DNA of 26,133 nt from the NCBI GenBank assembly GCA_964579355.1, contig CAZOGR010000001.1:1-26133 (forward strand), written 5' to 3'. This document shows positions 2,694-19,477 of this stretch, in pieces (the first letter of the stretch is position 1; each line of letters opens with the position of its first letter). Both the position numbers and the translations under genes were made by a program. The notes beneath the pieces are model-generated. The model was not told where the DNA came from. It ran no database searches and saw only the letters and a list, made by a program, of their open reading frames with translations. Origin of the DNA: an uncultured Dehalococcoidales bacterium (GTDB lineage Bacteria > Chloroflexota > Dehalococcoidia > Dehalococcoidales > UBA2162).

Positions 2694-2736
2694 GACGAAT
2701 ACCGGCCTCATTCTGCCGGAATAAGCAGCATAGCAC

Positions 2737-2765
2737 TGGAAATTACATTAATATTGATATACAAT
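2737..2765 (+). promoter_or_regulatory. Possible weak sigma70 promoter of the mutase operon (TGGAAA-17-TACAAT)
   Basis: -10 matches consensus 5/6, -35 matches 4/6, 17-nt spacer, in an AT-rich intergenic region. Confidence 0.35.
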
Positions 2766-2815
2766 AAACACAGAAAATCACTCTTTTTATTACCCCGAAG
2801 AACAGGAGTTTGTAA

Positions 2816-4579
2816 ATGTCCGGAACTTTTAATGAAAAATTCATGGAGAAGATAAGGAATAAACGCGAAGAGTGGGAAAAGGGAACGCTGAAATCTTCTC
2901 TGCAACGATTCGGCGTCAATGAACCGCCGGACCGATTTTACACTCCCTTGGATATACAAGACTGGGAATTCTCGGAAAAAGTCGGTTTCCCGGGAGAATT
3001 CCCCTTCACCGCCGGGATTTATCCCTGCCATGTTCCCGGAGCCGGGCCGGTAACCGGCGGCGGCAATATCGGGGCAACCGGCAAGGGTATGGTCAGAGCC
3101 GGACGTTATTCCGGCTACGGCATGGCTGAAGACACGCGCGACTTTTACGCGAAAGAAATCAAGCGTGGCCGGACCGTCGGCCCGAATCTGGCCTTCGACC
3201 TCCCTACCCAGATTGGTATCGATTCGGATGACCCTCGGGCTGAAGGCGAAGTCGGTAAGACCGGCGTCGCATTCGATTCGCTTCAGGACTTCGAAATTAT
3301 CTACGAGCCGTACGAAGGCGAGAACGGACTCGATAAAATAGCATCCAACTGGACGACCAATGCTCAGGCATTCGTCATCATCGCCGCCTACATCGCCCTT
3401 GCCGAGAAAAAAGGTATTAACCCGAAAATGCTCCGCGGCACCCCCCAGAATGACATTCTGAAAGAATACGTCGCCCGAGGCACCTACATATTCCCACCCA
3501 AGCACTCCCTCCGCCTCTTCCGCGATATCCTGGTATACTGTACCGAGCACACCCCGAGGCTGAACATCTGCAGCATTGCAGCCTACCATATGCGTGAAGG
3601 CGGGGCCACCCGCGAACAGGCCCTGGCATTCCACTTCGCCAACGCCATCACCTATATGCAGATAGGCGTCGACGCCGGTTTGAAAGTGGACGATTTCGTC
3701 GGACGCTTCAGCTTCAACACCCTCAGCGGCGACATGGAGATCATGAAAGAGATTGCCGCCCGCCGGGCTGCCCGCAGGATGTGGGCAAAGATTGTCCGTG
3801 ACCGCTTCGGCAGCCAGAACCCCCGCAGTCAGATATACCGGGAAGCCGGCGGATTTGTTGTCGGTTGCGTATCCTCGACCAAGCAGCGGCCGCTCAATAA
3901 CCTGACGAGAACCGTCATCGGCGGTGTCGCCGGCGCCTTCTGCGGCTATATCCCCTCGGTCGAACCTCCCTACGACGAAGCTCTCGGCCTCGGCTGGAGT
4001 ACGGAAGCCCAACAGCTTTCTGAAGATGCCGCTCGCATCATCCAGTACGAAGCCAGGCTTACCGAAGTGATGGACCCGCTGGCCGGTTCTTACTACATCG
4101 AATCACTCACCGACCAGATAGAACAGAAAGCCTGGGACATCATGAAGGAAATCGAAGACATGGGCGGTTCGCTCAAAGCTATCGAAAACGGCTACATGCA
4201 GCGCGCTGTCGCCCAGAGCGCTTACGAAAAACAGCGCCGGCTCGAAATCGGTGAGGATATTATTGTCGGCGTCAATGCTTTCACTGACAAGAGCGAACTG
4301 GATGTCCGGGTCAAGCAACTGGTACCTTATCCCTACGACCCAACCAAACAGGCCAGCGCGGAAGTGAACCAGATAAAGAAACTGCAGCAACTCCGCAAAG
4401 ACAGAGACAATAACCAGGTGGCAAAAACGCTCAGCCAGTTGAAAGAAACCGCTAAAGACGAAAATGCCAACCTGCTGCCGGCAACCGTAGAAGCTGTTAA
4501 AGCCTACGCTACCATCGGCGAGATTTGCGGCGCCCTGCGCGAAATCTTCGGAGAGTATTCGACCTACGGTACTCTGTAA
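2816..4579 (+). CDS. Adenosylcobalamin-dependent acyl-CoA mutase, substrate-binding (large) subunit; methylmalonyl-CoA mutase family but divergent
   Basis: AFDLPTQIG.DSD, GEVGK.GV, QNDILKEY.ARGTYIFP, YHMRE, YDEAL and DPLAGSYYIE motifs; RBS AGGAG at 2804-2808. Confidence 0.95.
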   Translation: MSGTFNEKFMEKIRNKREEWEKGTLKSSLQRFGVNEPPDRFYTPLDIQDWEFSEKVGFPGEFPFTAGIYPCHVPGAGPVTGGGNIGATGKGMVRAGRYSGYGMAEDTRDFYAKEIKRGRTVGPNLAFDLPTQIGIDSDDPRAEGEVGKTGVAFDSLQDFEIIYEPYEGENGLDKIASNWTTNAQAFVIIAAYIALAEKKGINPKMLRGTPQNDILKEYVARGTYIFPPKHSLRLFRDILVYCTEHTPRLNICSIAAYHMREGGATREQALAFHFANAITYMQIGVDAGLKVDDFVGRFSFNTLSGDMEIMKEIAARRAARRMWAKIVRDRFGSQNPRSQIYREAGGFVVGCVSSTKQRPLNNLTRTVIGGVAGAFCGYIPSVEPPYDEALGLGWSTEAQQLSEDAARIIQYEARLTEVMDPLAGSYYIESLTDQIEQKAWDIMKEIEDMGGSLKAIENGYMQRAVAQSAYEKQRRLEIGEDIIVGVNAFTDKSELDVRVKQLVPYPYDPTKQASAEVNQIKKLQQLRKDRDNNQVAKTLSQLKETAKDENANLLPATVEAVKAYATIGEICGALREIFGEYSTYGTL

Positions 4580-4617
4580 CCATAACAATGAACGTGATAA
4601 AGGGGTAAATTACTGAT

Positions 4618-5013
4618 ATGAGCAGTAAACAGCCAATAAAAGTCCTGTTAGCAAAACCCGGCCTCGACGGTCACGACCGAGGCGCGAAGGTAATAACCAT
4701 GGGCTTGAGAGAAGCTGGCATGGAAGTCATTTACACCGGGCTGAGACAGACGCCCGAAATGATAGCTCAGGCAACACTGGAAGAGCAACCGGATGTGGTT
4801 GCCTTAAGCTGCCTGTCCGGCGCCCACCAGTCTCTCTTTCCCAGAGTTGTTGAAGAGCTGAAAAAGAGAAACATGAAGGACGTTCTGGTCATCGGCGGCG
4901 GGATTATTCCTGATGAGGACGTTCCCGAACTTCAGAGTAAAGGCATTAAAGCCGTTTTCGGCCCCGGCACCTCCATTAAAGAAATTGCCGAATTCATCAG
5001 GGAAAACGTATAA
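4618..5013 (+). CDS. Acyl-CoA mutase cobalamin-binding (small) subunit
   Basis: K.GLDGHDRG (DxHxxG base-off motif), SxLxG (LSCLSG) and GGII motifs. Confidence 0.95.
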
Positions 5014-5073: not shown

Positions 5074-5490
5074 ATGTCCAAGAAAAAGGTCCCTCTGGCA
5101 CAAGGTCTCTTCACATGGCCTTCTGACCAGCCGAAGCTGATTGGCAGCAGATGCAAGAAATGCGGAACTCCGGCGTTCCCGAGTGTTGCTTACTGCACCA
5201 ATCCCGATTGTGAAAAAAATCCGGATAACGTAGAGAAAATCGAGCTCAGCAATCGGGCGAAACTCTACACCTACGCCGTTCAGGCTTATCCGATGCCGGC
5301 CCCCTTCAAAATGGAACCCTTCGAGCCTTTCCCGCTTGGCATGCTCGATTTCCCGGAAGGTCTGAGGATTCTCGGTATGCTGACCACTCCCGATGTAGAG
5401 ATTGGTATGGAAATGGAAATGACCGTGAAAAAACTCTACGAAGATGACGAGAACGAGTACATCACTTGGGCATGGAAGCCGGTAAAGTAA
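5074..5490 (+). CDS. DUF35 / Zn-ribbon OB-fold acyl-CoA-binding protein (thiolase partner)
   Basis: CKKC...CTNPDC four-Cys ribbon followed by an OB-fold ('IGMEMEM'); directly upstream of a thiolase; RBS AGGAGG. Confidence 0.9.
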   Translation: MSKKKVPLAQGLFTWPSDQPKLIGSRCKKCGTPAFPSVAYCTNPDCEKNPDNVEKIELSNRAKLYTYAVQAYPMPAPFKMEPFEPFPLGMLDFPEGLRILGMLTTPDVEIGMEMEMTVKKLYEDDENEYITWAWKPVK

Positions 5491-5512
5491 GGATAGGAGA
5501 AATTAACGAAAG

Positions 5513-6730
5513 ATGAAAAACAGAGATATTGCAATTGTTGGAATGGGCGTTCATCCTTACGGAAAATGGCCTGACAAGTCCATGGCTGAAATGGGATGCT
5601 ATGCTATCAACCAGGCGCTTGAAGACGCCCACATGAAGTGGCGTGATATCGACGCCATGGCCTGCGGTGCCTACATGTGGATTGCCGACCAAGGCGGAGT
5701 ACCTTCACTGTTACTCGGAACCTCCATCTCAACCATGATGGGCGGCACGGGTATCCCCTGTGTCAACATCGTCAACGCCTGCGCCACCGGCCAGACTATT
5801 CTCAGGGAAGCCTGCCTGGCTGTCGCTTCTGGCGAACATGAAATTGCCGTTGCTGTCGGCACCGATAAATCGGCCGGCGGCTTCTTCAGACCCCAGGGCA
5901 ACGATAAACGGTATGACAACGACTGGATTCGCTACGCGATGGTCGGTGAAACCAATCCCGGCTACTGGGCGATGGAAATGCGCCGTAGAATTCACGATTG
6001 TGGCACCACCGAAGAAGACATGGCCATGGTCAAGGTCATCACCAGTAAAGGCGGCGTCCATAATCCGAACGCCCGCTATCGCAAAGAATACACCCTCCAG
6101 GAAGTCCTCGAATCGCCGATGGTTTGCGACCCGCTTCGCCTATACGAAATCTGCGCCACGAGCGACGCCGCTTCCGCAATAATCGTCGTTCCCTTCGACC
6201 AGGCGGAAAAATATACCGATAAACCGATTCGTATCGAGGGCCTGGCAGTCGGTTCGCCGTCATTCGGCGACCCCTGCATCCCACTGACCTACCTCAGTGC
6301 TTTACCGAAATCCGACGTCGGCACCCTCGGCTGGAGTGAAAGCCGTAACGCACTCGCTGCCGCGTATAAGCAGTCAGGACGCACTCCGAAGGACATCGAT
6401 GTCATCGAACTGCCCGATAACAGCTCATGGCACTACCTTACCTATATGGATATGATTCTCCAGCTCCCCTACGGCGGCTCGGATAAACTCCTCCGCGAAG
6501 GGTATTTCAATATCCCGGACGGTAAAGTTCCGGTCTGCCCCAGCGGCGGATTCGGCGCCTTCGGCGAAGCGACTGTTGCCCAGGGACTCTGGCAATGCAT
6601 CGAAGTTGCTTACCAGCTTCGCGGTGACCTCGGCCCGAGACAGATTACCAACAACCCCAAGGTCGGACTTGCTCAGAGTTACGGCTATGCCGGTAACAAC
6701 GGCGTCTGCATCATGAGCAAAGCCTTTTAA
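5513..6730 (+). CDS. SCP2/lipid-transfer-protein-type thiolase-fold enzyme with non-canonical C-terminal catalytic motifs
   Basis: N-terminal Cys90 in NACATG, HNPNA, 'C..SD.A.A', PSGG..GEA, and QLRG..G.RQ motifs. Confidence 0.9.
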   Translation: MKNRDIAIVGMGVHPYGKWPDKSMAEMGCYAINQALEDAHMKWRDIDAMACGAYMWIADQGGVPSLLLGTSISTMMGGTGIPCVNIVNACATGQTILREACLAVASGEHEIAVAVGTDKSAGGFFRPQGNDKRYDNDWIRYAMVGETNPGYWAMEMRRRIHDCGTTEEDMAMVKVITSKGGVHNPNARYRKEYTLQEVLESPMVCDPLRLYEICATSDAASAIIVVPFDQAEKYTDKPIRIEGLAVGSPSFGDPCIPLTYLSALPKSDVGTLGWSESRNALAAAYKQSGRTPKDIDVIELPDNSSWHYLTYMDMILQLPYGGSDKLLREGYFNIPDGKVPVCPSGGFGAFGEATVAQGLWQCIEVAYQLRGDLGPRQITNNPKVGLAQSYGYAGNNGVCIMSKAF

Positions 6731-6755
6731 CTTTTTTAACTGTAGTCAGAACTGT

Positions 6756-6790
6756 GAGCAGGCTGAAGGAACACCTCCGTCAGCCTGCTC
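6756..6790. repeat. Intergenic inverted repeat (11-bp perfect stem, no U tract)
   Basis: GAGCAGGCTGA (6756-6766) pairs with TCAGCCTGCTC (6780-6790), between the thiolase and the epimerase. Confidence 0.7.
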
Positions 6791-6816
6791 TGTTCATTAA
6801 CAGGAGGTATATCAGC

Positions 6817-7212
6817 ATGCTTAAAGGAATCAGTCACACCGGTATAGCCGTCAAGAATCTCGATGAAACGATTAAAGTCTATGAAGCCCTCGGGGCTGTC
6901 ACCGGCGAGATTCACGACGCTCCGGAATCAGGCATGAGAGCCGCCATGGTACACGCCGGCAGCAGTACCCTCGAGCTTATCGAACCGATTGGTGAAGGCG
7001 GCGTTATCGCTAAATTTATCGAAAGTCGCGGCGAAGGCATTCATCACCTCTGCATGGAGGTCGATGATATCGGAAAAACCCTCGCTGAACTCGAGTCGAA
7101 AGGTATCAGGCTGATAGACAAAGTACCGAGACAGGGTATCGAAGGCCAGGTCGCCTTCATTCATCCCAAATCGATGAACGGGGTACTTATCGAACTGCTG
7201 GAAAAACCATAG
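6817..7212 (+). CDS. mce: Methylmalonyl-CoA epimerase family (VOC) protein
   Basis: HTGIAV, ELIEP, GEGIHH and 'HPKS.NGVLIEL' motifs. Start set at ATG 6817 behind AGGAGG (6802-6807), not at the track's 6754. Confidence 0.9.
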   Translation: MLKGISHTGIAVKNLDETIKVYEALGAVTGEIHDAPESGMRAAMVHAGSSTLELIEPIGEGGVIAKFIESRGEGIHHLCMEVDDIGKTLAELESKGIRLIDKVPRQGIEGQVAFIHPKSMNGVLIELLEKP

Positions 7213-7284: not shown

Positions 7285-8280
7285 CTATTTTTTCGCTTTT
7301 TTAAGTTCGGTGACGAGAGCCGGAATAATTTCTTTGAGATCTCCGACCACCGCGTAATCGGCTGCTTTCATGATATCAGCTGCCGGATTGTTGTTGATAG
7401 CGACGATAACCTTCGAATCCTGAATGCCAATGAGATGGTGAATGACACCCGAAATACCGGCGCCGATGTACAGGTTCGAGTGAATCGTTCGGCCGCTCTG
7501 GCCAATCATCTGCCGTTCCTGGACTGCCCAGCCTTCATCGCAGGCTGGACGGGTTGCGCCGATGCTCGCGCCGAGTACCTCTGCCAGGTCTTCAATCAGC
7601 TTCCAGTTTTCCTTATTTCCAACACCGAAACCGCCGGCGACGATTATCTCGGCTTCTTCGATAGGTTTCGCTTCCAGTTCTTCGGTGACGATGTTGAGGA
7701 CTTTAGTCCTGACTTTGTCTTCAGTGATGGTTACCGGAACTTTTTCTACAACCGCTTGTTTATTCGTCTTCTCGTTTTTCTTAATGAACCCGGGCGGAAC
7801 CGTGGTCATCTGCGGCCGATGGTTCGGACAGGCGATTGATGCCAGGATACTACCGCCAAAGGCAGGTATCTGAGATCTCAGACATCCGTTCTCATCAACA
7901 TCGACGCCGACAGCATGAGCAGAAAGCCCGGTGTCAACCTTAGCGGCGACGGTCGGTGCGAGGTCCATGCCGAGCGTGGTGCCGCCGATGAGGAGGATTT
8001 CCGGCTTTTTGGTGTTTATCAAATCGGCCATTACCGTTGCATAGGCGTCGGTTCGGAAAACTTCGAGAACCGGTGATTCGGCCAGGAGAACCTTGTCGGC
8101 TCCGTAGGCTGCCAGTTCGTCAGCCAGCCCGAAAACATTGTTGCCGATTAACACTGCCGAGAGTTCACAGCCAAGCTTGTCCGCAACCTTACGTCCTGCT
8201 CCGAGCATCTCCAGGCTGACATCGAGCAACTTGCCGTTCCTCTGCTCGGCAAAAGTCCAAACTCCTTTATATGCTTCCAT
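7285..8280 (-). CDS. etfA: Electron transfer flavoprotein alpha subunit (FixB-like)
   Basis: VW.FAEQR N-terminus, PAFGG, 'IIVAGG.G', 'ATRP..D.GW', 'IGQSG' and 'GISG..HH..G' motifs. Confidence 0.95.
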   Translation of the reverse strand: MEAYKGVWTFAEQRNGKLLDVSLEMLGAGRKVADKLGCELSAVLIGNNVFGLADELAAYGADKVLLAESPVLEVFRTDAYATVMADLINTKKPEILLIGGTTLGMDLAPTVAAKVDTGLSAHAVGVDVDENGCLRSQIPAFGGSILASIACPNHRPQMTTVPPGFIKKNEKTNKQAVVEKVPVTITEDKVRTKVLNIVTEELEAKPIEEAEIIVAGGFGVGNKENWKLIEDLAEVLGASIGATRPACDEGWAVQERQMIGQSGRTIHSNLYIGAGISGVIHHLIGIQDSKVIVAINNNPAADIMKAADYAVVGDLKEIIPALVTELKKAKK

Positions 8281-8308
8281 TATGTAATCTCCTTATTTAG
8301 GTTAATAT

Positions 8309-9118
8309 CTATTCAGGGAGTACGCCTTCGGCGCGCAGTTTTTCGATAAGCTGCCGTGCAACCTCTACTGAATCACCTTTCAGTACTTCGCCCTTGCGCT
8401 TCACTTCCACGCCAATAGTATCCGGTATATAGGTAGGAGACCCGTCCTTACCGATAAGTTTTTTGTCGACATCGACTTCGTCCGCCCTCCAGATAGTCGT
8501 CTGTTTCTCAGTAGCCCAGAGGGCACCGAAAACAGGCGGAACCCGGACGTCATTGATATTTTTCAAAACCGCCAGGGTAACCGGTGTTTTCACCTCGATT
8601 TCCATGTAACCGGTTTCAATCTTTCTCTGAACTATCAGGGTATTGTCACCTGTCAAATCAATCTTCTGAACATAGGTGACATGAGCGATATCGAGAGCTT
8701 CGGCAACCTGCGGGCCGACCTGCCCGGTACTGCCGTCGACACTCTCATTACCAAGGAGGATGATGTCGTAGGCACCTATTTTCCGAATACCGGCAGCCAG
8801 CGCCCGGGCAGTAGCCCAGGTGTCGGCTCCGCCGAAAGCCCGGTCGCTTAACAGGACGGTTTTATCAACGCCGTAAGCGTAGGCCCAGGCAAGCACTTCG
8901 GTCGTATTGTCCGGCCCCATGCTGATGACCGTAACCGTTCCGCCGGTAGCTTCCTTTATCCTGAGAGCTTCCTCGATAGCATTCAAGTCGAGAGGGTTGA
9001 TGACGACCGGTATGCCCTGCCGTCTGAGTGTTTTCGTTTTGGGATCAAGAGAAAGCCTGTCCCAGTACCGTTCGTCAGGAACAGGTTTGATACAGACTAT
9101 CATATCTAATGGCTTCAT
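8309..9118 (-). CDS. etfB: Electron transfer flavoprotein beta subunit (FixA-like)
   Basis: 'IVCIKPVPD', 'INP.D..AIEEAL', 'DRAFGGADTWAT' and 'G..S.DG.TGQVGP' motifs. Confidence 0.95.
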   Translation of the reverse strand: MKPLDMIVCIKPVPDERYWDRLSLDPKTKTLRRQGIPVVINPLDLNAIEEALRIKEATGGTVTVISMGPDNTTEVLAWAYAYGVDKTVLLSDRAFGGADTWATARALAAGIRKIGAYDIILLGNESVDGSTGQVGPQVAEALDIAHVTYVQKIDLTGDNTLIVQRKIETGYMEIEVKTPVTLAVLKNINDVRVPPVFGALWATEKQTTIWRADEVDVDKKLIGKDGSPTYIPDTIGVEVKRKGEVLKGDSVEVARQLIEKLRAEGVLPE

Positions 9119-9154
9119 TTTTTCTCCTCGCCTGTTTTTTTCAGTTAAAATCCG

Positions 9155-10381
9155 CTACCAGTCCAGCTTTCCCCACCATCCTGCCGTTTCCATATTGGTA
9201 CTGCTCAGGTCCGGGTTAGCTTCGTTGCGGATGACGGCATTGGCTATCATGATATTCAGAGATTCTTCAGTACCACCTGCGCCGAATCTCAACGGAGTGT
9301 GCTTGTAGTAGTGATGAGCCATGTAGTCCTCGACGACTCCGTAACCGCCGTGAATCTTGACACAGTGCTCGGCACACCTGATAGCTGCCTTTTCTGCAAA
9401 GTTTTTGGCAGTCGCCTGCTCGGCATCAGCGCGGATATTCTTCGTCCGCAGCCAGGCAGCGCGGTAGGTAAGCGCCCGAGAAGCTTCAAGGTCTATTGCC
9501 ATATTGGCAAGGCGCGCTTGAATCATCTGGAGTTCAGAAATCGGCCTGCCGTAAAGTTTTCTTTCTTTGGCATATTTCATCGCTGTCCTGTAACAGCCTA
9601 GCGAAATGCCGGTCAACATGCTGCAGATAGTCTGGCGGCCGATATCACCGACAGCCGCGAAAACAGGGCCAAGGCCGCGTCCGATGCCTGCTTCCTCACC
9701 GACGACAAAGTTATCAGGAACGAATACATTATCGAACACGAATTCGGTAAGGTCTCCCTTTCTGCCCAGGGTGTTTTCAAGTCTACCGATTTTAAACCCG
9801 TCGAATTCTCTGTCAATGATAAAAGCGGTGAGAGACCGCGCGCCGGGAGTCTTCGGGTCGTTGGGGTCGCCGGTTTTCACCAGCGCCATGATGAAATCGG
9901 CATAATGGCCTTCGCTCTGGAAACATTTTCTTCCGTTGATAACCCATCCGCCGTCAACCTTTTTAGCATTGGTCTGAATAGCCAGAACGTCGGAACCACC
10001 GGTAGGCTCGGTAACAGCCGGGGTTGCCAGTATGTCGCCCTTGATGATTCCAGGCATATATTTTTTATAGACCGCTCCGCCACAAGCCTTGGCGAAATAG
10101 TAAGCAAATTCGCCATAAATAGCGAAGGCCAGGTCAGGCCAGGCCGCACACAGTTCTTCGATGGTAATACAACTGGCTACGTACCCGATTCCGGTGCCGC
10201 CCTCTTCTTTGGGAACGATGTGAAGATGAAGGCCAGCTCTCGTCTGGCGCCTGGCTTCCTCATCCCACATCTCCTGATCGTCGATAATCAGTTCTTTCCG
10301 ACGCGGAATAATGTATTTTTCGCAGTATTCACGAGCTATTTTTCGTGACATTTCTTCTGCCGGCGATAACTCAAAAGGCAT
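9155..10381 (-). CDS. Acyl-CoA dehydrogenase-family flavoprotein lacking the canonical catalytic glutamate
   Basis: TEP.GGSD, NGRKCF, FD.VFVP, 'KER..YGRPI' and 'HGGYG' motifs; RBS AAGGAGG; immediately upstream of etfB-etfA. Confidence 0.93.
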   Translation of the reverse strand: MPFELSPAEEMSRKIAREYCEKYIIPRRKELIIDDQEMWDEEARRQTRAGLHLHIVPKEEGGTGIGYVASCITIEELCAAWPDLAFAIYGEFAYYFAKACGGAVYKKYMPGIIKGDILATPAVTEPTGGSDVLAIQTNAKKVDGGWVINGRKCFQSEGHYADFIMALVKTGDPNDPKTPGARSLTAFIIDREFDGFKIGRLENTLGRKGDLTEFVFDNVFVPDNFVVGEEAGIGRGLGPVFAAVGDIGRQTICSMLTGISLGCYRTAMKYAKERKLYGRPISELQMIQARLANMAIDLEASRALTYRAAWLRTKNIRADAEQATAKNFAEKAAIRCAEHCVKIHGGYGVVEDYMAHHYYKHTPLRFGAGGTEESLNIMIANAVIRNEANPDLSSTNMETAGWWGKLDW

Positions 10382-10691: not shown

Positions 10692-10783
10692 GAGTAGTGA
10701 CACTCCCGGATTTCAATCATCATGATAACAAGAAATCCGTTTTTGCTGTGTAATTTTTATTTTTGAGAAAGAAGGAGGATACT

Positions 10784-11710
10784 ATGATTATTGATGCCCA
10801 CATGCACCTTAGCGGAAGCGGCTGGGTAAGAGGTAAGTACCTGCGTTTCGTGTGGCAGATGTACGTTACCGAGTATAACCGGGTGCACAAAACAAACAAA
10901 ACCATCGATGACTTCAGAAATATGTTGACAGCTATGAAGCCGTCAGTGGTTGATCCTGAAGGCGATGGTGTCATCGAGTTGATGGACAAAGCCGGGGTTG
11001 ACAAGGCTGTTATCTTCCCTGTCGACTGGGAATCCGTAACCGGGGCTCCGAACGTTCCTGTCATGGAACAAAACAAAGCCCATGCCGACGCGGCAAAGAA
11101 GCACACGGGCCGCTTCGTACCGATATGTGCTCTTAACCCCACCCGTGGCGACGCCATGGACCGCGCTAAACAGGCTGTTGAAGAATGGGGGATGAAGGGG
11201 TTCTACTTCATGCCGGCTTCGGGATTCCGCCCGGATGACCCGGTTTGTTTCCCCATCTACGAAAAAGCTGTCGAATGGAAAGTGCCGGTTATTATCCACT
11301 CCGGCAAGGAGATAGCTCATTGGGACTATTGCCACCCGTTCAGAATCGCCAATGTCGGCCTAATGTATCCTGAACTGAAGGTGGTTATCGGGCACGCAGG
11401 GACAAGAATATACCGGAGAGAAGCCATAGAAGCCTGTATCGTACCGAATGTTTATATGGACTTCTCAGAGTACCAGGGTTTCTGGCACCTTCAGCCCGAA
11501 AAATTCTACAACTGGTTGCGGGATGCTATCGATGCTTGCGGTCCTCAGAAGGTAATGTTCGGCAGCGGTTTCCCCAATCCGAACGTGTTGACCCCCGAAG
11601 CCGAATGGGTCAAGGCAATTACGGAACCGAAGACGAATGTCAAGTTCACTGCCGAGGAGATAGATTTCGTCATGGGCAAGACTGCCGAGTCAGTCTTCGA
11701 TTTTTCTTAA
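10784..11710 (+). CDS. Amidohydrolase_2 family metalloprotein (decarboxylase/hydratase-like subgroup)
   Basis: DAHMH (HxH), IIHSG, IGHAG and 'KVMFGS.FP' motifs. Start set at ATG 10784 behind AAGGAGG. Confidence 0.88.
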   Translation: MIIDAHMHLSGSGWVRGKYLRFVWQMYVTEYNRVHKTNKTIDDFRNMLTAMKPSVVDPEGDGVIELMDKAGVDKAVIFPVDWESVTGAPNVPVMEQNKAHADAAKKHTGRFVPICALNPTRGDAMDRAKQAVEEWGMKGFYFMPASGFRPDDPVCFPIYEKAVEWKVPVIIHSGKEIAHWDYCHPFRIANVGLMYPELKVVIGHAGTRIYRREAIEACIVPNVYMDFSEYQGFWHLQPEKFYNWLRDAIDACGPQKVMFGSGFPNPNVLTPEAEWVKAITEPKTNVKFTAEEIDFVMGKTAESVFDFS

Positions 11711-11745
11711 ACCTTAATTAGTAAAACAAATAATCGGAGGAAAAT

Positions 11746-12402
11746 ATGGCTGATATTCTGGATATCATCTCCAGCCGGCAGAGTATCCGTAAATATACGG
11801 ATGAACCCGTCCCGGACGAGATGGTTGATAAAATCCTTGAAGCCGCGCGGTGGGCACCGAGCGGAGAAAACGAACAACCCTGGCACTTCGTTGTTGTCAA
11901 AGACCCCGAAACCCGCAAGAAAATCGGTGAATACTGCAAGGTAGGCACCGGCCAGAGAGGTACCGCCGAACACTGTCTTCATGAAGACCACCGTTTCGAT
12001 GTTTATACCGACCCGGTCGAAAAAGCCCGTCTGCAGGAATTCTACTACAGTGGTTCCGTATCGTTCTTCCCGGCCAATGCCCCCGTCGTCATCATCGCCG
12101 CGGGCAAAGTCACTGGAATGATGGATACCCCGTACGACCTTTCGGCAGCAATTCAGAATGCCATTCTCGAAGCTCACTCTCTCGGGCTGGGAGCCTGCTG
12201 GGTCCACGGACCCGCGGTCTACCCCCGAATCGTCAAGAAACTGAAAGAGCTTCTCGGTATTCCCACCGGTATGGCTGACTATAAAGTCCTCGCCATCATC
12301 TCGGTCGGCTGGCCGGCAGGAAAACGAAGTCACCCCCAGGGAAGGAAAGAAAGGTCGACCTTCGTGCACTTCGAAAAATTCGGGAACATGAAGAGGGGCT
12401 AA
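11746..12402 (+). CDS. Nitroreductase-family FMN flavoprotein
   Basis: R.SIRKY, 'APSGEN.QPW.F', 'D...AIQN..L.A.SLGLG.CW' motifs. Confidence 0.92.
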   Translation: MADILDIISSRQSIRKYTDEPVPDEMVDKILEAARWAPSGENEQPWHFVVVKDPETRKKIGEYCKVGTGQRGTAEHCLHEDHRFDVYTDPVEKARLQEFYYSGSVSFFPANAPVVIIAAGKVTGMMDTPYDLSAAIQNAILEAHSLGLGACWVHGPAVYPRIVKKLKELLGIPTGMADYKVLAIISVGWPAGKRSHPQGRKERSTFVHFEKFGNMKRG

Positions 12403-12888
12403 ATGGATCAGATAGCATATACAAACGACCTGCTCACCAGGTTCGAAGAAATTTTTTACCATGAACTGTCGCAGATTAACGCTCGCTGCAAGGTCGAGTT
12501 AATCGGCTCCGATTTCCTCAATGATAAAAACATCAAAGGGAATACGGTCGAGGAACTGGTCCAGAACTGTATCGATGAAATCAAGGCTGACGGCTTCGTC
12601 AAGGACATGACCGGTAAAGTTACCGGACGCGGCATTCTCCTGAAACTCAACATGAAAGGCTGCATCCACCTGCCGAAAGAAGCGAAACTCCAGGCACAGG
12701 GAATCGAGCCCTACCTCTGCCCTCTGGCAAACATGATTTCCGAGCAGATAATCAGCAAACTGAACTACATGACCACCTATTCAGCCGGCATGACTGTCGA
12801 TACACAGAAAGGCGAATGCGTCATATACTGCGCCATTTACAAGGATATGGACTCTATCGGCAAGGTATCGGACTGGACAAAGGAATAG
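12403..12888 (+). CDS. Hypothetical protein, possibly a V4R-like Cys-coordinated ligand-binding fold
   Basis: ATG abuts the nitroreductase TAA, with RBS AGAGGGG. 'GCIH...CPLAN...EC' Cys spacing resembles V4R-type domains; the fold call is inference. Confidence 0.6.
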   Translation: MDQIAYTNDLLTRFEEIFYHELSQINARCKVELIGSDFLNDKNIKGNTVEELVQNCIDEIKADGFVKDMTGKVTGRGILLKLNMKGCIHLPKEAKLQAQGIEPYLCPLANMISEQIISKLNYMTTYSAGMTVDTQKGECVIYCAIYKDMDSIGKVSDWTKE

Positions 12889-13326: not shown

Positions 13327-14691
13327 ATGAACACCAGAATGTTTTTTCTTCAACAGAAAGACATGCCGAAGCAGTGGTATAACATACAGGCGGACTTACC
13401 CGTCCCACTGCCTCCCTACTATCACCCGGCAACGAAAAAACCGATTGGGCCGGCTGACCTCGCGCCCCTCTTTGCCATGGAGTTGATAAAACAGGAAGTC
13501 AGCCAGGAGCGCTACATCGATATCCCCGAAGAAGTTCAGGATATCTACAGAACCTGGAGACCAACCGCTCTTCACCGCGCTTACAGCCTGGAGAAAGCCC
13601 TCGATACTCCCGCCAAGATTTTCTACAAGTACGAAGGCACCAGCCAGGGCGGCAGCCATAAACCGAACACGGCCATTGCTCAAGCCTACTACAATAAAAA
13701 AGAAGGCATCAATCGACTCACCACCGAAACCGGGGCCGGACAGTGGGGCAGTTCACTTTCTTTTGCCTGTAAACTCTTCAATATCGAACTGAAAGTGTAC
13801 ATGGTAAAAGTCAGCTACAACCAGAAACCCTACCGCCGCCTGATGATGGAAACCTGGGGTGCCACCTGTGTTCCCAGCCCCAGTCCCGATACAAAAATCG
13901 GCCGCGATATGCTGGCTAAAGACCCGGACTGTCCCGGCAGCCTCGGCCTGGCTATCAGTGAAGCCGTCGAAGACGCTGTTTCGAGAGACGATACCCATTA
14001 CTCGCTCGGCAGCGTCCTCAACCATGTCCTGATGCACCAGACCATCATCGGACAGGAAGCGATGCTCCAGATGGAGATGGCCGGGTATTACCCCGATATT
14101 GTCATCGGCTGCGTCGGCGGCGGCTCCAACTTCGCGGGCATGTTCCTGCCCTTCGTTAAAGACAAAATCAGCGGCAAAAAACCCGGACTGCGTATCATCA
14201 ACGTCGAACCGGAGAGCTGCCCTACCCTCACCAAAGGTCTTTATGCCTATGATTACGGCGATGAAGCCGGCATGGCTCCCATTGCCAAGATGTTCACCCT
14301 CGGCCATTCCTTCATGCCGCCTCCGGTTCACGCCGGCGGCCTCCGTTACCATGGCATGGCACCGATTATCTGCCATCTCCACAAGCTTGGATTCGTCGAA
14401 GCGGTTGCCGTACCCCAGATAGCCACTTTCGAAGCAGGGGTTCAGTTCGCCCGTACCGAAGGTATTATCAGCGCTCCGGAAACCAACCACGCTATCAGAG
14501 CTACCATTAACGAAGCCCTGAAATGCAAAGAGACCGGTGAGTCTAAGGTTATCCTGATGTGTCACAGTGGACACGGACATTTCGACCTGACTTCCTACGA
14601 ACAGTATCTCGGCGGAAAACTGGTCGATTATGCGTACCCCGAAGAGAAAGTCAGGGAAGCTCTGGCAACCCTGCCCCAGATAGAAGAATAA
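13327..14691 (+). CDS. trpB2: Tryptophan synthase beta chain, stand-alone TrpB2 type
   Basis: GSHKPNTA (PLP Lys), [17 protein letters not shown] and HAGGLRYHG motifs; long N-terminus '[12 protein letters not shown]' typical of TrpB2; no trpA adjacent. Confidence 0.95.
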
Positions 14692-14750: not shown

Positions 14751-14898
14751 TGGCATTCCGACGGGTTTTCTACGAAAATCCAATTCTTATATAATAGTGG
14801 TAGAAAGACCGGTATGCTCCAGCCCCGGCAAACGCCCGTGAGTTAAACTTAATATTTTCTTAACAGTTAATTGATACATTGGTACTGGAGGCAGGGAT

Positions 14899-16032
14899 AT
14901 GAGGAAAATAGCAGTATTACTGGTATCGTTGATAGTCATTCTAACGGTCATTTTAAGTACAGGCTGCTCGCTCATCGTCAGTAGCACAACAGAAAATTCG
15001 GATAATACCTCCCAGACCATTGAGCCGGAAATTGAAACTATTGAGGGAAACGGGAATAACAGTGCGGTAACCATCCCGATTTGCGAGCATCAGCCGGCTC
15101 TCCCAAGCATCGCCGATGTCGTTGCCGAGGTCAAACCTTCGGTCGTTATCATCAATACCGAAGTCGAAGCCTACGATTACTTCTACCGCCCGACGACCCA
15201 GGAAGCCACCGGTTCTGGCTTTATCATCACCGAGGACGGCTATATTGTTACTAACAATCATGTCATTGAAGGTGCGCAGTCTATTACCGTCATCCTCGAC
15301 GACAAGCGCAGTTTCAGCGCCGAAGTCATCGGTACCGACCCCTACACTGATATGGCAGTTATAAAAATCGACGCCGATAACTTGCCGACGGTAAAAATGG
15401 GCGATTCATCGATAATGCGAATCGGCGACTGGGTCGTCGCTATCGGCAACTCACTGGGCGAAGGCACGAGTGCCACGAACGGCATTATCAGTGCCAAGAA
15501 TGCGTCGCTGTCCTTCTCCGCCGAACAGACGCTCTATAATCTGCTGAGAACCAACGCCGAAATCAACCAGGGTAACTCCGGCGGACCGCTCGTTAATATG
15601 TCCGGGGAAGTTGTCGGTATCACCAGCGCCAAGGTCGCCAGCGTCGGCGTCGAGGGCATGAACTATGCCATCAGCACGGAAACCGCCACCCCTATTATCG
15701 AACAACTTATTAATCAGGGATACGCTTCCCACCCCTGGCTCGGTGTCTCTCTGTACACGGTTGATGAATATGTCATCGAACGGTTTATCCTGGCTGTCGA
15801 CAAGGGAGCTTTCCTGGTGGAAGTCGTTCCGGACAGTCCGGCCAGCAAAGCCGGACTTGAAACCTACGATGTTATCACCAGATTCAACGGACAGGACATT
15901 GCCGACGTCGATGAACTGATTGAAGCGATTCAGAAAACCCGGGTCGGCCAGGAAGTCGAAGTCACCTACTGGCACGGCAACCAGGAAATGACCACCACTC
16001 TCACCCTCGGCGAAAGGCCGACCGAATCGTAA
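14899..16032 (+). CDS. htrA: HtrA/DegP-family serine protease (trypsin domain plus one PDZ), probable lipoprotein
   Basis: GSGFII, TNNHV (His), D.AVIKI (Asp), GNSGGPL (Ser); lipobox-like LSTGC (Cys23). Confidence 0.92.
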   Translation: MRKIAVLLVSLIVILTVILSTGCSLIVSSTTENSDNTSQTIEPEIETIEGNGNNSAVTIPICEHQPALPSIADVVAEVKPSVVIINTEVEAYDYFYRPTTQEATGSGFIITEDGYIVTNNHVIEGAQSITVILDDKRSFSAEVIGTDPYTDMAVIKIDADNLPTVKMGDSSIMRIGDWVVAIGNSLGEGTSATNGIISAKNASLSFSAEQTLYNLLRTNAEINQGNSGGPLVNMSGEVVGITSAKVASVGVEGMNYAISTETATPIIEQLINQGYASHPWLGVSLYTVDEYVIERFILAVDKGAFLVEVVPDSPASKAGLETYDVITRFNGQDIADVDELIEAIQKTRVGQEVEVTYWHGNQEMTTTLTLGERPTES

Positions 16033-16057
16033 TCCTCCCCGCGCCTGACAGGAAATC

Positions 16058-16092
16058 GAAAAGCCCTGTTCTTTGCGAACAGGGCTTTTTTC
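16058..16092. terminator. Bidirectional intrinsic terminator between convergent htrA and ileS
   Basis: AAAAGCCCTGTTC-TTTGC-GAACAGGGCTTTT hairpin with A and T runs on the flanks. Confidence 0.85.
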
Positions 16093-16111
16093 TTCATTGT
16101 GCTGACCGGTA

Positions 16112-19100
16112 TCACGCCAGCTTTTTGACCCCCATCGAAACCGCATGCCCGCTGATTTTGAATTCTTCCCGGTAGTCAGCATTCTCAGGAACGCCCACCA
16201 TCAGTTTGTCGGTCAGCGTCTCCTGCCTGATGTAATCTCCGGTGACACCACCGGCCATAATACCATTGACATACTCGTCGCCCTCATAGTGGACGATTAT
16301 GTGGTCAGCAATATCGAAATCCGCCGAACGCCGCATGTTCTGAATCCGGTGGACTATTTCCCGGGCCATTCCTTCGGCTTCGAGTTCCGGCGTCAGGACA
16401 GTATAGATAGCAGAATTCGTATTGCCTTCGGCTGCAACCATGTACCCTTCCTTGCCATTCAGTATTTCAACCTCAGCGAACAATTGCACCTCCACGGTTT
16501 TCACGTTCAGCTCATCCAGCACCATCTGCATAATTTCTTCATTCGCCAGTGCCCGTTTCTCACGGTCGGTGGCAACACCGATATAGTTGACTGCCAGCGG
16601 CTGTCTCACCTTGATACCCGCTTTGCTTCTTACCGCTCTGCCAAGGCTCGATACCTTCATCGCCAGCTTGTTGGCTTCGGAAAGCTGCTCATCAATCATG
16701 CTTTCATCAGCAGCAGGGAAGTCAGCCAAGTGAACGCTTTCGGGAGCCGCCGGGTTCACTGAAACCACCAGGTTCCGGTACAGCTCTTCGGAAAGAAACG
16801 GAGTGAATGGTGCCATCAGCTTCGCCAGCGTCACCAGGCATTCGTACAGTGTGTTGTATGCCGAAAGTTTATCGGTATCGTTCTCACTCTTCCAGAACCG
16901 TCTCCGGCTCCGCCGTACGTACCAGTTAGACAGCAGGTCAATGAATGTCTCAATTTTTCGTCCGGAATCGGTCGGATTGTAGTTTGCCAGACCGCCGTCA
17001 ACATCGATAATCAACTGACTCAGCTCTGAAAGTATCCACTTGTCCAGTTCCGCTTCAGGTTTAAAGGACATCCCATCGGCAGGTTTGAATTCATCGATGT
17101 TCGCGTACATAACAAAGAATGAATAGACATTCCAGAGAGTCGAAAGTACCCGCCGTGAAACTTCGGTGACCTGTTTCGTATCGAACTGACGGGGGATGCC
17201 GGACGGCGACCCGGTGTAAAGGTACCAGCGCAAGGCGTCGGCTCCGTCCTTATTGATGACATCTTTCGGCCAGACGATATTGCCCCGGCTCTTGCTCATT
17301 TTTTTACCCTTGGCATCGAGTACCAGCTCCAGGCAGATACAGTTCTCGAAAGCGACACGGTCGAATAGCATCGTCGATATGGCATGAAGGCTGTAAAACC
17401 AGCCTCGGGTCTGGTCGACGCCTTCGCTGATGAACTCCGCAGGCGAAACGCTTTTCTCGAACAGTTCTTTATTTTTCATTGGATAATGGAACTGAGCGAA
17501 CGGCATCGAACCGGATTCGAACCAGCAGTCCATTACTTCCGGGGTACGTTTCATTCCTCCGCCGCATTTGCCACATGAGAAGGTAATATCATCCGCGTAA
17601 GGCCGGTGCAGATCGATCGTTTCGGCAAAGCCGCTGAAACCGGGTTTCGCCCTTAACTCATCGATACTGCCGACACACTCCATCTCACCGCATTTCTCGC
17701 AGCGCCAGATTGGCAGTGGCGCCCCCCAGTACCGTTCCCGAGCAAACGCCCAGTCGACATTATTCTCTAGCCAGTTGCCGAACCGACCGGATTTAATATG
17801 CTCCGGATACCAGTTAATCCCCCGGTTCAGATCCATCATCCGCTCTTTGACGGCGGTTGTCTTGATGTACCAGGTCTGCTTGGCATAGTAGAGCAGCGGG
17901 GCGTCGCAGCGCCAGCAGAAAGGATAGGTGTGCTTCACCATCTCCCGGCGATAGAGTAGTCCGCGTTCCTTTAATTCTTCCATTATCAGCGGGTCGGCTG
18001 CCTTGACGAACTTGCCGGCAAAGGAATAGGACCCAATCAGATTTCCCTGTAGGTCTACCTGCTGGACGAAATCCAGTTTTTTCGTTTTCCCGGCTTCGTA
18101 GTCGACTTCGCCGAAAGCGGGTGCAACATGGACGATACCGGTACCGTCATCCATCGTCACAAAATCACCGCCGATAACGGTATACATCAGATTAGTCTCC
18201 GGTTCCTGTTTGACCAGCGAACCGTCGTCCTGGAATCTCAGACGATCGACCGAGTATTCATGCGGATTGTAGAGCGGCTGATAACGAATACCCACCAACT
18301 CTTTACCGGGGATGTTTTTCACCGATGTGTATCCTTCCGGATTCAGAATGACCGCCAGCCGGGCTGCCATGACCAGGTAATCGTTCTCACCCTGTAAGAC
18401 CACATACTCGGAATCCGCCGATACTGCCAGGGCAGTGTTGCCGGGCAACGTCCAGGGAGTCGTCGTCCATGCCAGCAGGTATACCGGTTTATCAGACGGC
18501 AGTTTTTCCGAGATATCATCGGCTACCTTAAACTTTATGTAAACAGAAGGGTCGACCGTATCGTCTTTATACCCCTGGGCGACCTCGTGTGAGCTTAAGG
18601 ACGTTCCGCAGCGCGGGCAGTGAGGTGTCACCCGGTATCCCTGGTAGACAAGTCCTCTGTCCCACATCTGCTTCAGCGCCCACCAGACAGATTCTATGTA
18701 GCTGTTGTTCATCGTCACGTAGGCATTGTCGAGGTCGACCCAGTAAGCAATGCGCTCGGTCATGCTATTCCACTCTTTAAGATAGGTAAAGACGCTGTCC
18801 CGGCACCGCTTGTTGAATACTTCAATGCCGATTTTTTCAATCTGGTCCTTGCTGGTTATTCCGAGCTGTTTTTCCACTTCCAGTTCGACAGGCAGGCCAT
18901 GTGTATCCCAGCCCGCAATACGTGGCACGTAGTACCCCTTCATCACCTTGTAACGAATGATGATATCTTTGTAGGCCCGCGCGAGCACGTGGTGAATACC
19001 GGGATTGCCATTCGCGAAGGGAGGCCCCTCGTAAAAAACGAACCGGTCGTTCTTTTCCCGCGAGGTAACGCTTTTCCCGAAAACATCAATCTGTTTCCAG

Positions 19101-19162
19101 AGCTCCAGGATATCTTCTTCCATCTTTGGAAAATTAACATGGCTCCCGACAGGTTTAAACAT
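16112..19162 (-). CDS. ileS: Isoleucine--tRNA ligase, type 2 (archaeal/eukaryote-like)
   Basis: FYEGPPFANG.P.IHH (HIGH variant), GWDTHGLPVE, WTTTPWTLP and KMSKS motifs; C-terminal 'EG.AREIV.RIQ..R' lacks the type-1 Zn finger. Start is ATG 19162 (GGAG 6 nt upstream) or GTG 19165. Confidence 0.97.
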   Translation of the reverse strand: MFKPVGSHVNFPKMEEDILELWKQIDVFGKSVTSREKNDRFVFYEGPPFANGNPGIHHVLARAYKDIIIRYKVMKGYYVPRIAGWDTHGLPVELEVEKQLGITSKDQIEKIGIEVFNKRCRDSVFTYLKEWNSMTERIAYWVDLDNAYVTMNNSYIESVWWALKQMWDRGLVYQGYRVTPHCPRCGTSLSSHEVAQGYKDDTVDPSVYIKFKVADDISEKLPSDKPVYLLAWTTTPWTLPGNTALAVSADSEYVVLQGENDYLVMAARLAVILNPEGYTSVKNIPGKELVGIRYQPLYNPHEYSVDRLRFQDDGSLVKQEPETNLMYTVIGGDFVTMDDGTGIVHVAPAFGEVDYEAGKTKKLDFVQQVDLQGNLIGSYSFAGKFVKAADPLIMEELKERGLLYRREMVKHTYPFCWRCDAPLLYYAKQTWYIKTTAVKERMMDLNRGINWYPEHIKSGRFGNWLENNVDWAFARERYWGAPLPIWRCEKCGEMECVGSIDELRAKPGFSGFAETIDLHRPYADDITFSCGKCGGGMKRTPEVMDCWFESGSMPFAQFHYPMKNKELFEKSVSPAEFISEGVDQTRGWFYSLHAISTMLFDRVAFENCICLELVLDAKGKKMSKSRGNIVWPKDVINKDGADALRWYLYTGSPSGIPRQFDTKQVTEVSRRVLSTLWNVYSFFVMYANIDEFKPADGMSFKPEAELDKWILSELSQLIIDVDGGLANYNPTDSGRKIETFIDLLSNWYVRRSRRRFWKSENDTDKLSAYNTLYECLVTLAKLMAPFTPFLSEELYRNLVVSVNPAAPESVHLADFPAADESMIDEQLSEANKLAMKVSSLGRAVRSKAGIKVRQPLAVNYIGVATDREKRALANEEIMQMVLDELNVKTVEVQLFAEVEILNGKEGYMVAAEGNTNSAIYTVLTPELEAEGMAREIVHRIQNMRRSADFDIADHIIVHYEGDEYVNGIMAGGVTGDYIRQETLTDKLMVGVPENADYREEFKISGHAVSMGVKKLA

Positions 19163-19196
19163 CACTCACTCCACTTTTTTTCAGTTTCTTACCAAT

Positions 19197-19468
19197 AAAA
19201 AAACCTCGTCACAGGGACGAGGCTGCTATAGCTCCGCGGTACCACCCTTGTTTCCCGATTGCATCGGGACACTCATCAAAGCACATTACAATGCTTCCGC
19301 TGTCGGTAACGGTCAGCGACTCCGTTCAAGCCTACTAACCCCGGGACTGCCGGGATATTCGGTTGACGACTCGGGAGGGATTTTCGGGAAGACGGCCACG
19401 TCTGCTTTCACCGAACCAGACTCGCTGCGTACCCGGATACTTCCTTACTCTTCTCCGTCACTGTCTTT
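19197..19468 (-). ncRNA. T-box riboswitch, isoleucine-specific
   Basis: Minus strand: AAAGACAGTGACGGAGAAGAGTA; CAGCGAG; GGTGAAAG; specifier GAAA-ATC at 19381-19379; T-box AACAAGGGTGGTACCGCGG at 19252-19234; terminator CCTCGTC/GACGAGG plus U7. Confidence 0.93.
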
Positions 19469-19477
19469 AACAATAAA

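Follow-up and report, generated by a model that had tools for sequence, protein, structure and literature searches.

Here we describe a gene pair on a 26,133-nucleotide stretch of DNA from an uncultured Dehalococcoidales bacterium (contig CAZOGR010000001.1 of assembly GCA_964579355.1; hereafter the window). The pair occupies positions 2816-5013 and on balance encodes a two-subunit acyl-coenzyme A (CoA) mutase, of putative activity and requiring adenosylcobalamin (AdoCbl), from a clade of uncharacterised specificity. The enzyme probably acts on some substituted succinyl-CoA and not on methylmalonyl-CoA, the substrate of its database name. There is good support for a new specificity clade, and the sequences collected here suggest that it is large, mis-annotated and diversified. 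The evidence comes from the residues lining the predicted active site of the large subunit (hereafter the query), from their conservation, from the position of the protein among known mutases and from the genes that accompany it.

The mutase and its remodelled active site

An original prediction, made from the nucleotide sequence without database searches, had drawn attention to positions 3026-3970 as encoding an active site remodelled beyond that of ethylmalonyl-CoA mutase (ECM). This segment corresponds to amino acids (aa) 71-385 of the 587-aa mutase open reading frame, the sole credible gene there; a 434-aa open reading frame on the opposite strand (2708-4012) was rejected as an antisense shadow of it. 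The query has the TIM-barrel substrate domain (MM_CoA_mutase) of the AdoCbl acyl-CoA mutase superfamily, as indicated both by PF01642 and by Foldseek, and among the NCBIfam profiles it matches TIGR00641 with 492 bits. The closest chains of the PDB by sequence (HMMER) are 2-hydroxyisobutyryl-CoA mutase (HCM; 4r3u, E 2e-101), human methylmalonyl-CoA mutase (MCM) and MutB of Propionibacterium shermanii (E 5e-87). AlphaFold2, run on 67 family sequences, gave a model with a predicted local distance difference test score (pLDDT) of 84 and a predicted template modelling score of 0.89. Foldseek matched this model first to 4r3u (template modelling score, TM, 0.80) and then to MCM and IcmF, all within TM 0.76-0.80. 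The small subunit, encoded 40 bases 3' of the large-subunit gene, carries the DGHDRG (DxHxxG), SCL (SxL) and GG motifs of the B12-binding part of the superfamily.

Active-site residues were mapped with HMMER against PDB chains and with a MAFFT alignment of 251 sequences, and the two were concordant; equivalents in P. shermanii MutB numbering are given in brackets. As had been proposed, Y98 (Tyr89), Q211 (Gln197), R221 (Arg207), Y257/H258 (Tyr243/His244) and E388 (Glu370) are retained, and A344 (His328), G346 (Gln330) and P384 (Asn366) are changed, in both alignments. Two of the P. shermanii strings quoted by the original prediction, RFHTQT and STSMT, were wrong and should read RTHSQT and SVSMT; the residue equivalences are unaffected. 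The remodelling goes further than had been noticed, since N124 (Ser114), Q132 (His122), N178 (Ser164), W179 (Met165), N301 (Phe287), T302 (Trp288), P380 (Ser362) and V382 (His364) are changed as well. The substitutions attributed to ECM, His328 to Gly and Asn366 to Pro, were found in the annotated MeaA of Ruegeria sp. TM1040 and in the metagenomic representative P0265. The query pocket is more open than that of ECM through Gly in place of Gln at 330 and through the changes at 287/288, and a substrate side chain larger than ethyl would be a plausible reading of these changes.

The Gly-rich insertion was also borne out. The interval from F64 to Y98 measures 35-36 residues vs. 21 in MCM and HCM, a net gain of 14-15 residues. 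Among the members of the clade described below, the CoA-channel segment is 30-36 residues long, compared with 21 in MCM, HCM, ECM and LydI. In the orthologues its consensus is VPG[SA]GPVTGG[YG][HN]I[GA][GT]G[GK]G[LM]VRAGRY, and in the AlphaFold2 model it is mostly coil (pLDDT 63-72). Altered CoA binding is a plausible consequence.

Conservation of the remodelled pocket

A word-indexed search recovered 120 relatives of 57-96% identity, nearly all from metagenome-assembled genomes (MAGs) of Chloroflexota/Dehalococcoidales and one from Syntrophales. In 62 orthologues (63.8-97% identity) the mean conservation of 20 pocket columns was 0.981 vs. 0.839 for all columns, a value reached by none of 10,000 random 20-column sets. 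These orthologues show practically no variation in REAGGF, GYIPSVEPPYDE or the Gly-rich insertion; REAGGF, kept in 61-62 of the 62, is also the top group-specific segment when paralogue groups are compared. Because the pocket columns are near-invariant and unmatched by random sets, the remodelled site is maintained by selection: strong purifying selection acts on the altered pocket.

Position among characterised mutases

In a neighbour-joining tree (152 sequences, 460 columns) the query, its paralogues and three neighbouring clusters formed at 50% identity make up one clade with a bootstrap value of 87, or 99 without the deepest member, P0123. MCM, archaeal-type MCM, isobutyryl-CoA mutase (ICM)-like proteins, HCM, ECM (MeaA) and LydI all fall outside it. 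Alignment and tree, the check suggested along with the original prediction, thus place the protein in none of the characterised clades compared. NCBIfam contains no ECM-, HCM- or ICM-specific model able to classify the outgroups. The new specificity class originally claimed stands insofar as the protein lies outside the characterised clades compared and its pocket is conserved, but the query is not a lone oddity; within a large clade it represents a single orthologue group.

An exhaustive HMMER scan of 1.84 billion representative sequences gave scores of 690, 530 and 498 bits for the three neighbouring clusters and at most 396 bits beyond them. These clusters bear generic names, and all are derived from MAGs except Conexibacter sp. 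DBS9H8 (49% identity), the sole cultured carrier of a clade member found. Most members come from Chloroflexota MAGs, with some from Thermodesulfobacteriota, Syntrophales and Actinomycetota. No clade member was present in a plasmid collection, where the 425 matches were all below 60% identity and the best reached 40%.

Among the characterised enzymes, HCM (HcmAB, 4r3u) is the best structural match and is likewise split into large and small subunits, with 39% identity between the large ones. It differs in having Ile at Tyr89, Asp at Ala116 and Gln at Arg207 while keeping His328, Gln330 and Asn366. With Tyr, Ala and Arg at 89, 116 and 207, the query does not carry the HCM/RCM signature. ICM, IcmF and pivalyl-CoA mutase, which act on monocarboxylic substrates, are marked by Phe at Tyr89 and Gln at Arg207. 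The query keeps Tyr98 and Arg221 at these sites, and the score with IcmF was 137 bits.

Mutases proposed for large side chains have been published, namely IaaGH and ActD/MatBQ/LydIN (PMC8360864, PMC5719088, PMC12130866). ActD, MatBQ and LydIN, of the HPS-chemophore type, are split putative hexylmalonyl-CoA mutases for a long alkyl chain and, as here, are encoded with an epimerase (PMC5719088, PMC12130866). LydI, the putative alpha subunit from plasmid pFiD188 of Rhodococcus fascians, is 33% identical to the query and has no insertion. Its 20-position signature, LSAQSFQNRGHRIFQNSHCE, includes Leu89, Gly243, Gln328, Asn330 and Cys366. LydIN is biosynthetic and is encoded with Ccr and MeaB. In general, HPS-type mutases form an actinobacterial clade associated with Ccr, epimerase and non-ribosomal peptide synthetase genes, to which the query, with its other signature, does not belong. 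LydI also bears on the view that Tyr89 marks dicarboxylic substrates: the residue is indeed changed in HCM, but the mark is not universal, the putative mutase LydI having Leu.

Diversification of the clade

Tyr89, Asn114, Gln122, Asn164, Trp/Phe165, Gln197, Arg207, His244, Pro366 and Glu370 are nearly fixed throughout the clade. Positions 243, 287/288, 328/330 and 362/364 occur in approximately 35 combinations among the best 123 hits. When paralogues were grouped by overall identity and not by pocket, the columns that are group-specific and conserved within groups clustered at MutB 324-335, 358-363, 287-301 and 241-243 and in the insertion. With such columns located at the pocket, this is the pattern expected of paralogues with different substrates.

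The surroundings of the paralogues were taken from the best 80 genome loci, and a metagenome scan added at least six further clade loci. A family III CoA-transferase lies beside clade mutases in at least six loci (L004, L006, L008, L085, L088, L094), a carboxyltransferase in at least four (L004, L085, L086, L088) and a PrpD-like protein in at least six (L002, L005, L008, L087, L088, L094). Tripartite ATP-independent periplasmic (TRAP) transporters, old yellow enzyme-type reductases, enoyl-CoA hydratases and acyl-CoA dehydrogenases (ACADs) or other beta-oxidation genes are also recurrent, and paralogue P0101 adjoins a carboxyltransferase, a biotin carrier and MeaB. Such neighbours would be expected where branched di- or polycarboxylic acids are imported, activated with CoA, rearranged in their skeleton and decarboxylated. 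In L007 (Thermodesulfobacteriota, tar biofilm) the context consists of housekeeping genes, with no glycyl-radical enzyme among them.

In two of the loci, B12 rearrangement enzymes are densely clustered. The L087 contig encodes two clade mutase large subunits (8001-9737 and 14874-16613), each accompanied by a PrpD-like gene and by binding proteins of the DctP type. In L088 (146-3582) two glutamate-mutase-like E+S pairs precede a block of clade mutase, CoA-transferase and carboxyltransferase.

Outside the clade, the representative hits P0124-P0270 (33-43% identity) represent well over fifty clusters at 50% identity, with pockets matching no MCM, ICM, HCM or ECM signature; many of these non-canonical mutases retain Tyr89 and Arg207. 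Judged from such predicted pockets, the uncharacterised specificity space of the mutase superfamily is very large.

Genomic neighbourhood of the mutase

The coordinates of the mutase, of its remodelled segments and of the genes that accompany it are collected in Table 1.

Table 1. Mutase genes, remodelled segments and accompanying genes in the window.
Feature	Position	Strand	Remarks
Acyl-CoA mutase large (substrate-binding) subunit, 587 aa	2816-4579	+	PF01642, E 6e-141
Gly-rich segment, aa 71-97 (CHVPGAGPVTGGGNIGATGKGMVRAGR)	3026-3106	+	In place of the MCM CoA-channel segment TMYAFRPWTIRQ
REAGGF, aa 342-347	3839-3856	+	Aligned to MutB R326-T331 (RTHSQT); His328 to Ala, Gln330 to Gly
PSVEPP, aa 380-385	3953-3970	+	Aligned to MutB S362-S367 (SLHTNS); Asn366 to Pro
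B12-binding small subunit, 131 aa	4618-5013	+	PF02310, E 4e-26; TIGR00640, 161 bits
DUF35-type protein (zinc ribbon and OB fold; BbsA/ChsH2-like)	5074-5490	+	PF01796, PF12172; weak BbsA match
SCP-x-type thiolase	5513-6730	+	PF22691; best PDB matches archaeal acetoacetyl-CoA thiolase 6esq and BbsB 7pxp
Methylmalonyl-CoA epimerase family protein	6754-7212	+	TIGR03081, 134 bits (cutoff 115)
EtfA (7285-8280) and EtfB (8309-9118)	7285-9118	-	PF01012, PF00766; kept in L083, L084 and L093
Acyl-CoA dehydrogenase without catalytic Glu (AGG for YEG)	9155-10381	-	
Amidohydrolase_2 family protein	10763-11710	+	PF04909, E 3e-28
Nitroreductase-family flavoprotein	11746-12402	+	PF00881, E 4e-37
Cys/His-rich conserved protein, 161 aa, V4R/Bet3-like predicted fold	12403-12888	+	

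The order of these genes is conserved in two other loci, whose mutases are 89% (L083) and 69% (L084) identical to the query. Large subunit, small subunit, DUF35-type protein, SCP-x-type thiolase and epimerase are encoded forward, EtfA, EtfB and the ACAD divergently, and amidohydrolase, nitroreductase and the 161-aa protein forward again. In both loci the DUF35 gene adjoins the mutase, as it does here. In L093, where the mutase is 65% identical, mutase, epimerase, electron-transferring flavoprotein (ETF) and ACAD are retained, and another context at 65% identity retains nitroreductase, 161-aa protein, mutase and amidohydrolase. The epimerase gene is thus found in L083, L084 and L093. Read from the listed GTG, the epimerase has 152 aa; orthologues have 129-134 aa, which makes the ATG at 6817 the more probable start.

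In the ACAD, FGAGGTEE aligns to the IYEGT of 5lnx, 4l1f and 1ws9, which puts AGG at the site of the catalytic Glu. The alternative position used by isovaleryl-CoA dehydrogenase holds no Glu either, and both traits are shared by the ACAD orthologues of L083, L084 and L093. Assignment as a methylsuccinyl-CoA or benzylsuccinyl-CoA dehydrogenase was rejected, as those enzymes keep the Glu (GEG and VEG, respectively; for the former see PMC8360864) and the motif here is AGG. The matches to structures of methylsuccinyl-CoA dehydrogenase (Mcd) are weak (6es9, 120 bits; 8ciw, 100 bits).

The amidohydrolase is linked to clade mutases in L083, L084, L098 and the P0049 contig, and so is the nitroreductase. 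The 161-aa protein had no match in Pfam, NCBIfam or the PDB sequences. Only 77 homologues of it were found, all on contigs with mutase orthologues, and C56, C87, H89, C106 and C139 are invariant. Its AlphaFold2 model (pLDDT 86) gave weak Foldseek matches to the phenol-sensor domain of PoxR/MopR/DmpR and to Bet3 (TM about 0.52), suggesting a possible relationship at the level of fold. The triad of amidohydrolase, nitroreductase and 161-aa protein (10763-12888 here, 4607-6803 in L098, and on the P0049 contig) accompanies mutases of two pocket types; substrate pre-processing and cobalamin handling are candidate roles that it may have. The best NCBIfam match of the nitroreductase is BluB (5,6-dimethylbenzimidazole synthase), at 72 bits with a cutoff of 150; it is probably not BluB, curious though the match is beside a B12 enzyme.

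A TrpB-like pyridoxal phosphate enzyme (13327-14691, forward strand; NF009057, 733 bits) follows the cluster here and not in L083 or L084, and is probably unrelated to the operon. No cobalamin riboswitch was found in the window. The sole Rfam match is a T-box leader (19210-19470, reverse strand; 99 bits, above the gathering score) upstream of an isoleucyl-tRNA synthetase gene (16112-19165, reverse strand).

Proposed reaction

The published system with which this operon can be compared is that of IaaGH, which belongs to the anaerobic breakdown of indoleacetate in Aromatoleum aromaticum, a two-subunit phenylsuccinyl-/benzylmalonyl-CoA mutase proposed for a bulky substituted succinyl-CoA; the query clade was set against it through its published description and not through the IaaG sequence. 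IaaGH is encoded with a decarboxylating, ETF-using ACAD that has lost the Glu of YEG (PMC8360864), and the same pairing, with AGG, is seen here. That ACAD, the benzylmalonyl-CoA dehydrogenase IaaF, acts after IaaGH and has a GGG motif; it couples oxidation to the loss of the alpha-carboxyl group, uses ETF and is strictly stereospecific. Benzylmalonyl-CoA is furthermore accepted by a methylmalonyl-CoA epimerase (PMC8360864). By analogy, the mutase, epimerase, Glu-less ACAD and EtfAB of the window may reproduce the logic of IaaGH and IaaF. Unlike the Iaa system, the window has no IaaL-type CoA-transferase, CoA ligase or molybdenum hydroxylase, and the ACAD motif is AGG, not GGG. No locus from Aromatoleum or Ferroglobus was among the best 80 genome loci, and no Aromatoleum among the plasmid matches listed.

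The substrate would be a CoA thioester with a free carboxylate, as in MCM and ECM, held by Tyr98 and Arg221 and with His258 on the thioester carbonyl. A reversible 1,2-shift of the -CO-SCoA group would turn a 2-substituted succinyl-CoA into its substituted malonyl-CoA counterpart and back. In MCM, His328, Gln330, Ser362, His364, Asn366, Phe287 and Trp288 form a wall at the methyl/migration-terminus carbon; the query has, in the same order, Ala, Gly, Pro, Val, Pro, Asn and Thr. This would leave room for a substituent larger than the hydrogen of MCM and probably larger than the methyl of ECM. If flux runs in this direction, the malonyl-type product would probably be epimerised by the neighbouring epimerase and then oxidatively decarboxylated to an enoyl-CoA by the Glu-less ACAD, with EtfAB as electron acceptor. 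The enoyl-CoA would enter beta-oxidation, and the DUF35/thiolase pair may serve a later thiolytic step. This coupled pathway is put forward with less confidence than the enzyme class itself.

More broadly, and more tentatively still, the clade may be an unrecognised radiation of B12 mutases with a Gly-rich CoA-channel insertion, mainly in anaerobic Chloroflexota. Through positions 243, 287/288, 327-335 and 358-364, each paralogue group would be adapted to a substituted succinyl-CoA of its own, such as aryl-, alkyl- and carboxyalkyl-succinates, including products of fumarate addition or ring opening. In the query group, mutase, epimerase and a decarboxylating Glu-less ACAD/ETF would then make up one self-contained module feeding beta-oxidation. 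We regard this reading as possible rather than probable; if true, it extends the Iaa logic well past indoleacetate.

Several points weigh against this reaction scheme and its extension to the clade. The pocket enlargement is predicted from residue substitutions, and the activities of the clade as a whole are predicted from sequences. The AlphaFold2 confidence is lowest (60-75) exactly in the remodelled segments (aa 61-100, 341-360 and 381-400), so that residue equivalence there depends on the alignment. The lack of Tyr89 in LydI makes the residue rules soft. Some ACADs with AGG form a non-redox subclass of desulfinases (PMC8360864), and loss of the Glu is therefore by itself no proof of a decarboxylating dehydrogenase. 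Around the query (window, L083 and L084) there is no CoA-transferase, CoA ligase or carboxyltransferase; the DUF35/thiolase pair is absent from the more distant orthologue contexts; and the conserved triad has no place in the model.

Alternative explanations

The alternative that survives best, although we hold it to be rather unlikely, is a different class of substrate. This could be a polar or charged substituent, as in a tricarboxylate-type or an amino- or hydroxy-substituted succinyl-CoA, or a carrier other than free CoA. The pocket does contain polar residues (N124, N178, N301, T302, E343, E383), and among these E343 sets the orthologue group apart. Beside the paralogues, PrpD-family proteins and TRAP transporters are met repeatedly, and the Gly-rich insertion stands where MCM has CoA-contacting residues. 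The other CoA contacts of the barrel, however, are kept (the equivalents of T166, T195, R283 and S285), the neighbours are standard acyl-CoA enzymes and no acyl carrier protein gene is nearby.

Slightly less likely is an isofunctional, independently evolved ethylmalonyl-CoA/methylsuccinyl-CoA mutase, with epimerase and ACAD/ETF as its partners, as in the central part of the ethylmalonyl-CoA pathway, whichever way this runs. Like the query, ECM (MeaA) is an AdoCbl mutase, there of dicarboxylic thioesters, that keeps Tyr89, Arg207, Tyr243 and His244 and has Pro366 and a small residue at 328. Epimerase, ACAD and ETF flank ECM in the ethylmalonyl-CoA pathway, and a thiolase adjoins the mutase here. 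MeaA, however, is a single fused polypeptide of approximately 660 aa, is 34-35% identical to the query and belongs to another clade. It lacks the Gly-rich insertion and keeps Gln330, Phe287, Ser114, Ser164 and Met165, all five of which the query changes; of the residues typical of the MeaA clade (Gly328, Gln330, Ala362, Gln364, Pro366) the query matches Pro366 only. The ACAD points the same way, with no Glu where Mcd has GEG and with the weak Mcd matches noted above. Moreover, no ccr, mesaconyl-CoA hydratase or lyase gene occurs within 10 kb in the three genomes.

An ordinary MCM with a drifted active site, which is what the public annotation amounts to, seems improbable. Its relatives are named methylmalonyl-CoA mutase in the sources, the context of P0101 resembles a methylmalonyl-CoA decarboxylase module, and the query shares with MutB, human MUT and the archaeal split MCM the fold and the catalytic, carboxylate-binding and ribose-binding residues, Tyr89, Arg207 and His244 among them. 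The identity to these enzymes is 37-38%, however, and in addition to the longer channel segment the query replaces His328, Gln330, Asn366, Ser362, His364, Phe287 and Trp288. In the 251-sequence alignment His328, Gln330 and Asn366, which together with Tyr89 and Arg207 define MCM, are invariant in bacterial, archaeal-type and human MCM and in ICM- and HCM-like proteins; the query has Ala, Gly and Pro. It scores 433 bits with the MCM equivalog NF006944, far from the cutoff of 876. The altered residues are themselves invariant across the orthologues, which is not drift.

A catalytically inactive, structural paralogue like the MutA beta chain is very improbable. The heavily altered active site would fit it, but the residues for radical catalysis and for ribose and carboxylate binding are all kept, the protein has its own B12-binding subunit with DxHxxG, the pocket is conserved above the rest of the protein, and MutA chains score 66 bits vs. 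296 bits for catalytic chains.

Occurrence and implications

Near-identical DNA is present in wastewater, bioreactor and anaerobic-digester metagenomes. A metatranscriptome from an anaerobic digester contains contigs of at least 99% identity on the DUF35/thiolase, EtfA, amidohydrolase and nitroreductase genes, and one from sludge contains a single near-identical contig, on the thiolase. Together the two cover window positions 5279-5773, 6463-6722, 7730-7959, 10845-11538 and 11909-12067, with no near-identical RNA contig over the mutase gene. As DNA carry-over is possible, this evidence for transcription is weak.

An alkyl- or aryl-succinyl-CoA mutase of anaerobic hydrocarbon and auxin degradation has apparently not been characterised biochemically in the literature, and the operon described here is a compact candidate system for such work. 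The known substrate specificities of B12 acyl-CoA mutases are few, and dozens of conserved pocket variants would be a source of new carbon-skeleton rearrangements for biocatalysis. Public records all name these proteins methylmalonyl-CoA mutase. As a result of this misnaming, the methylmalonyl-CoA (propionate) pathway is probably over-called when the metabolism of digester, groundwater and sediment Chloroflexota, Dehalococcoidia included, is reconstructed, and a pathway for dicarboxylates with branches or aryl substituents would be overlooked.

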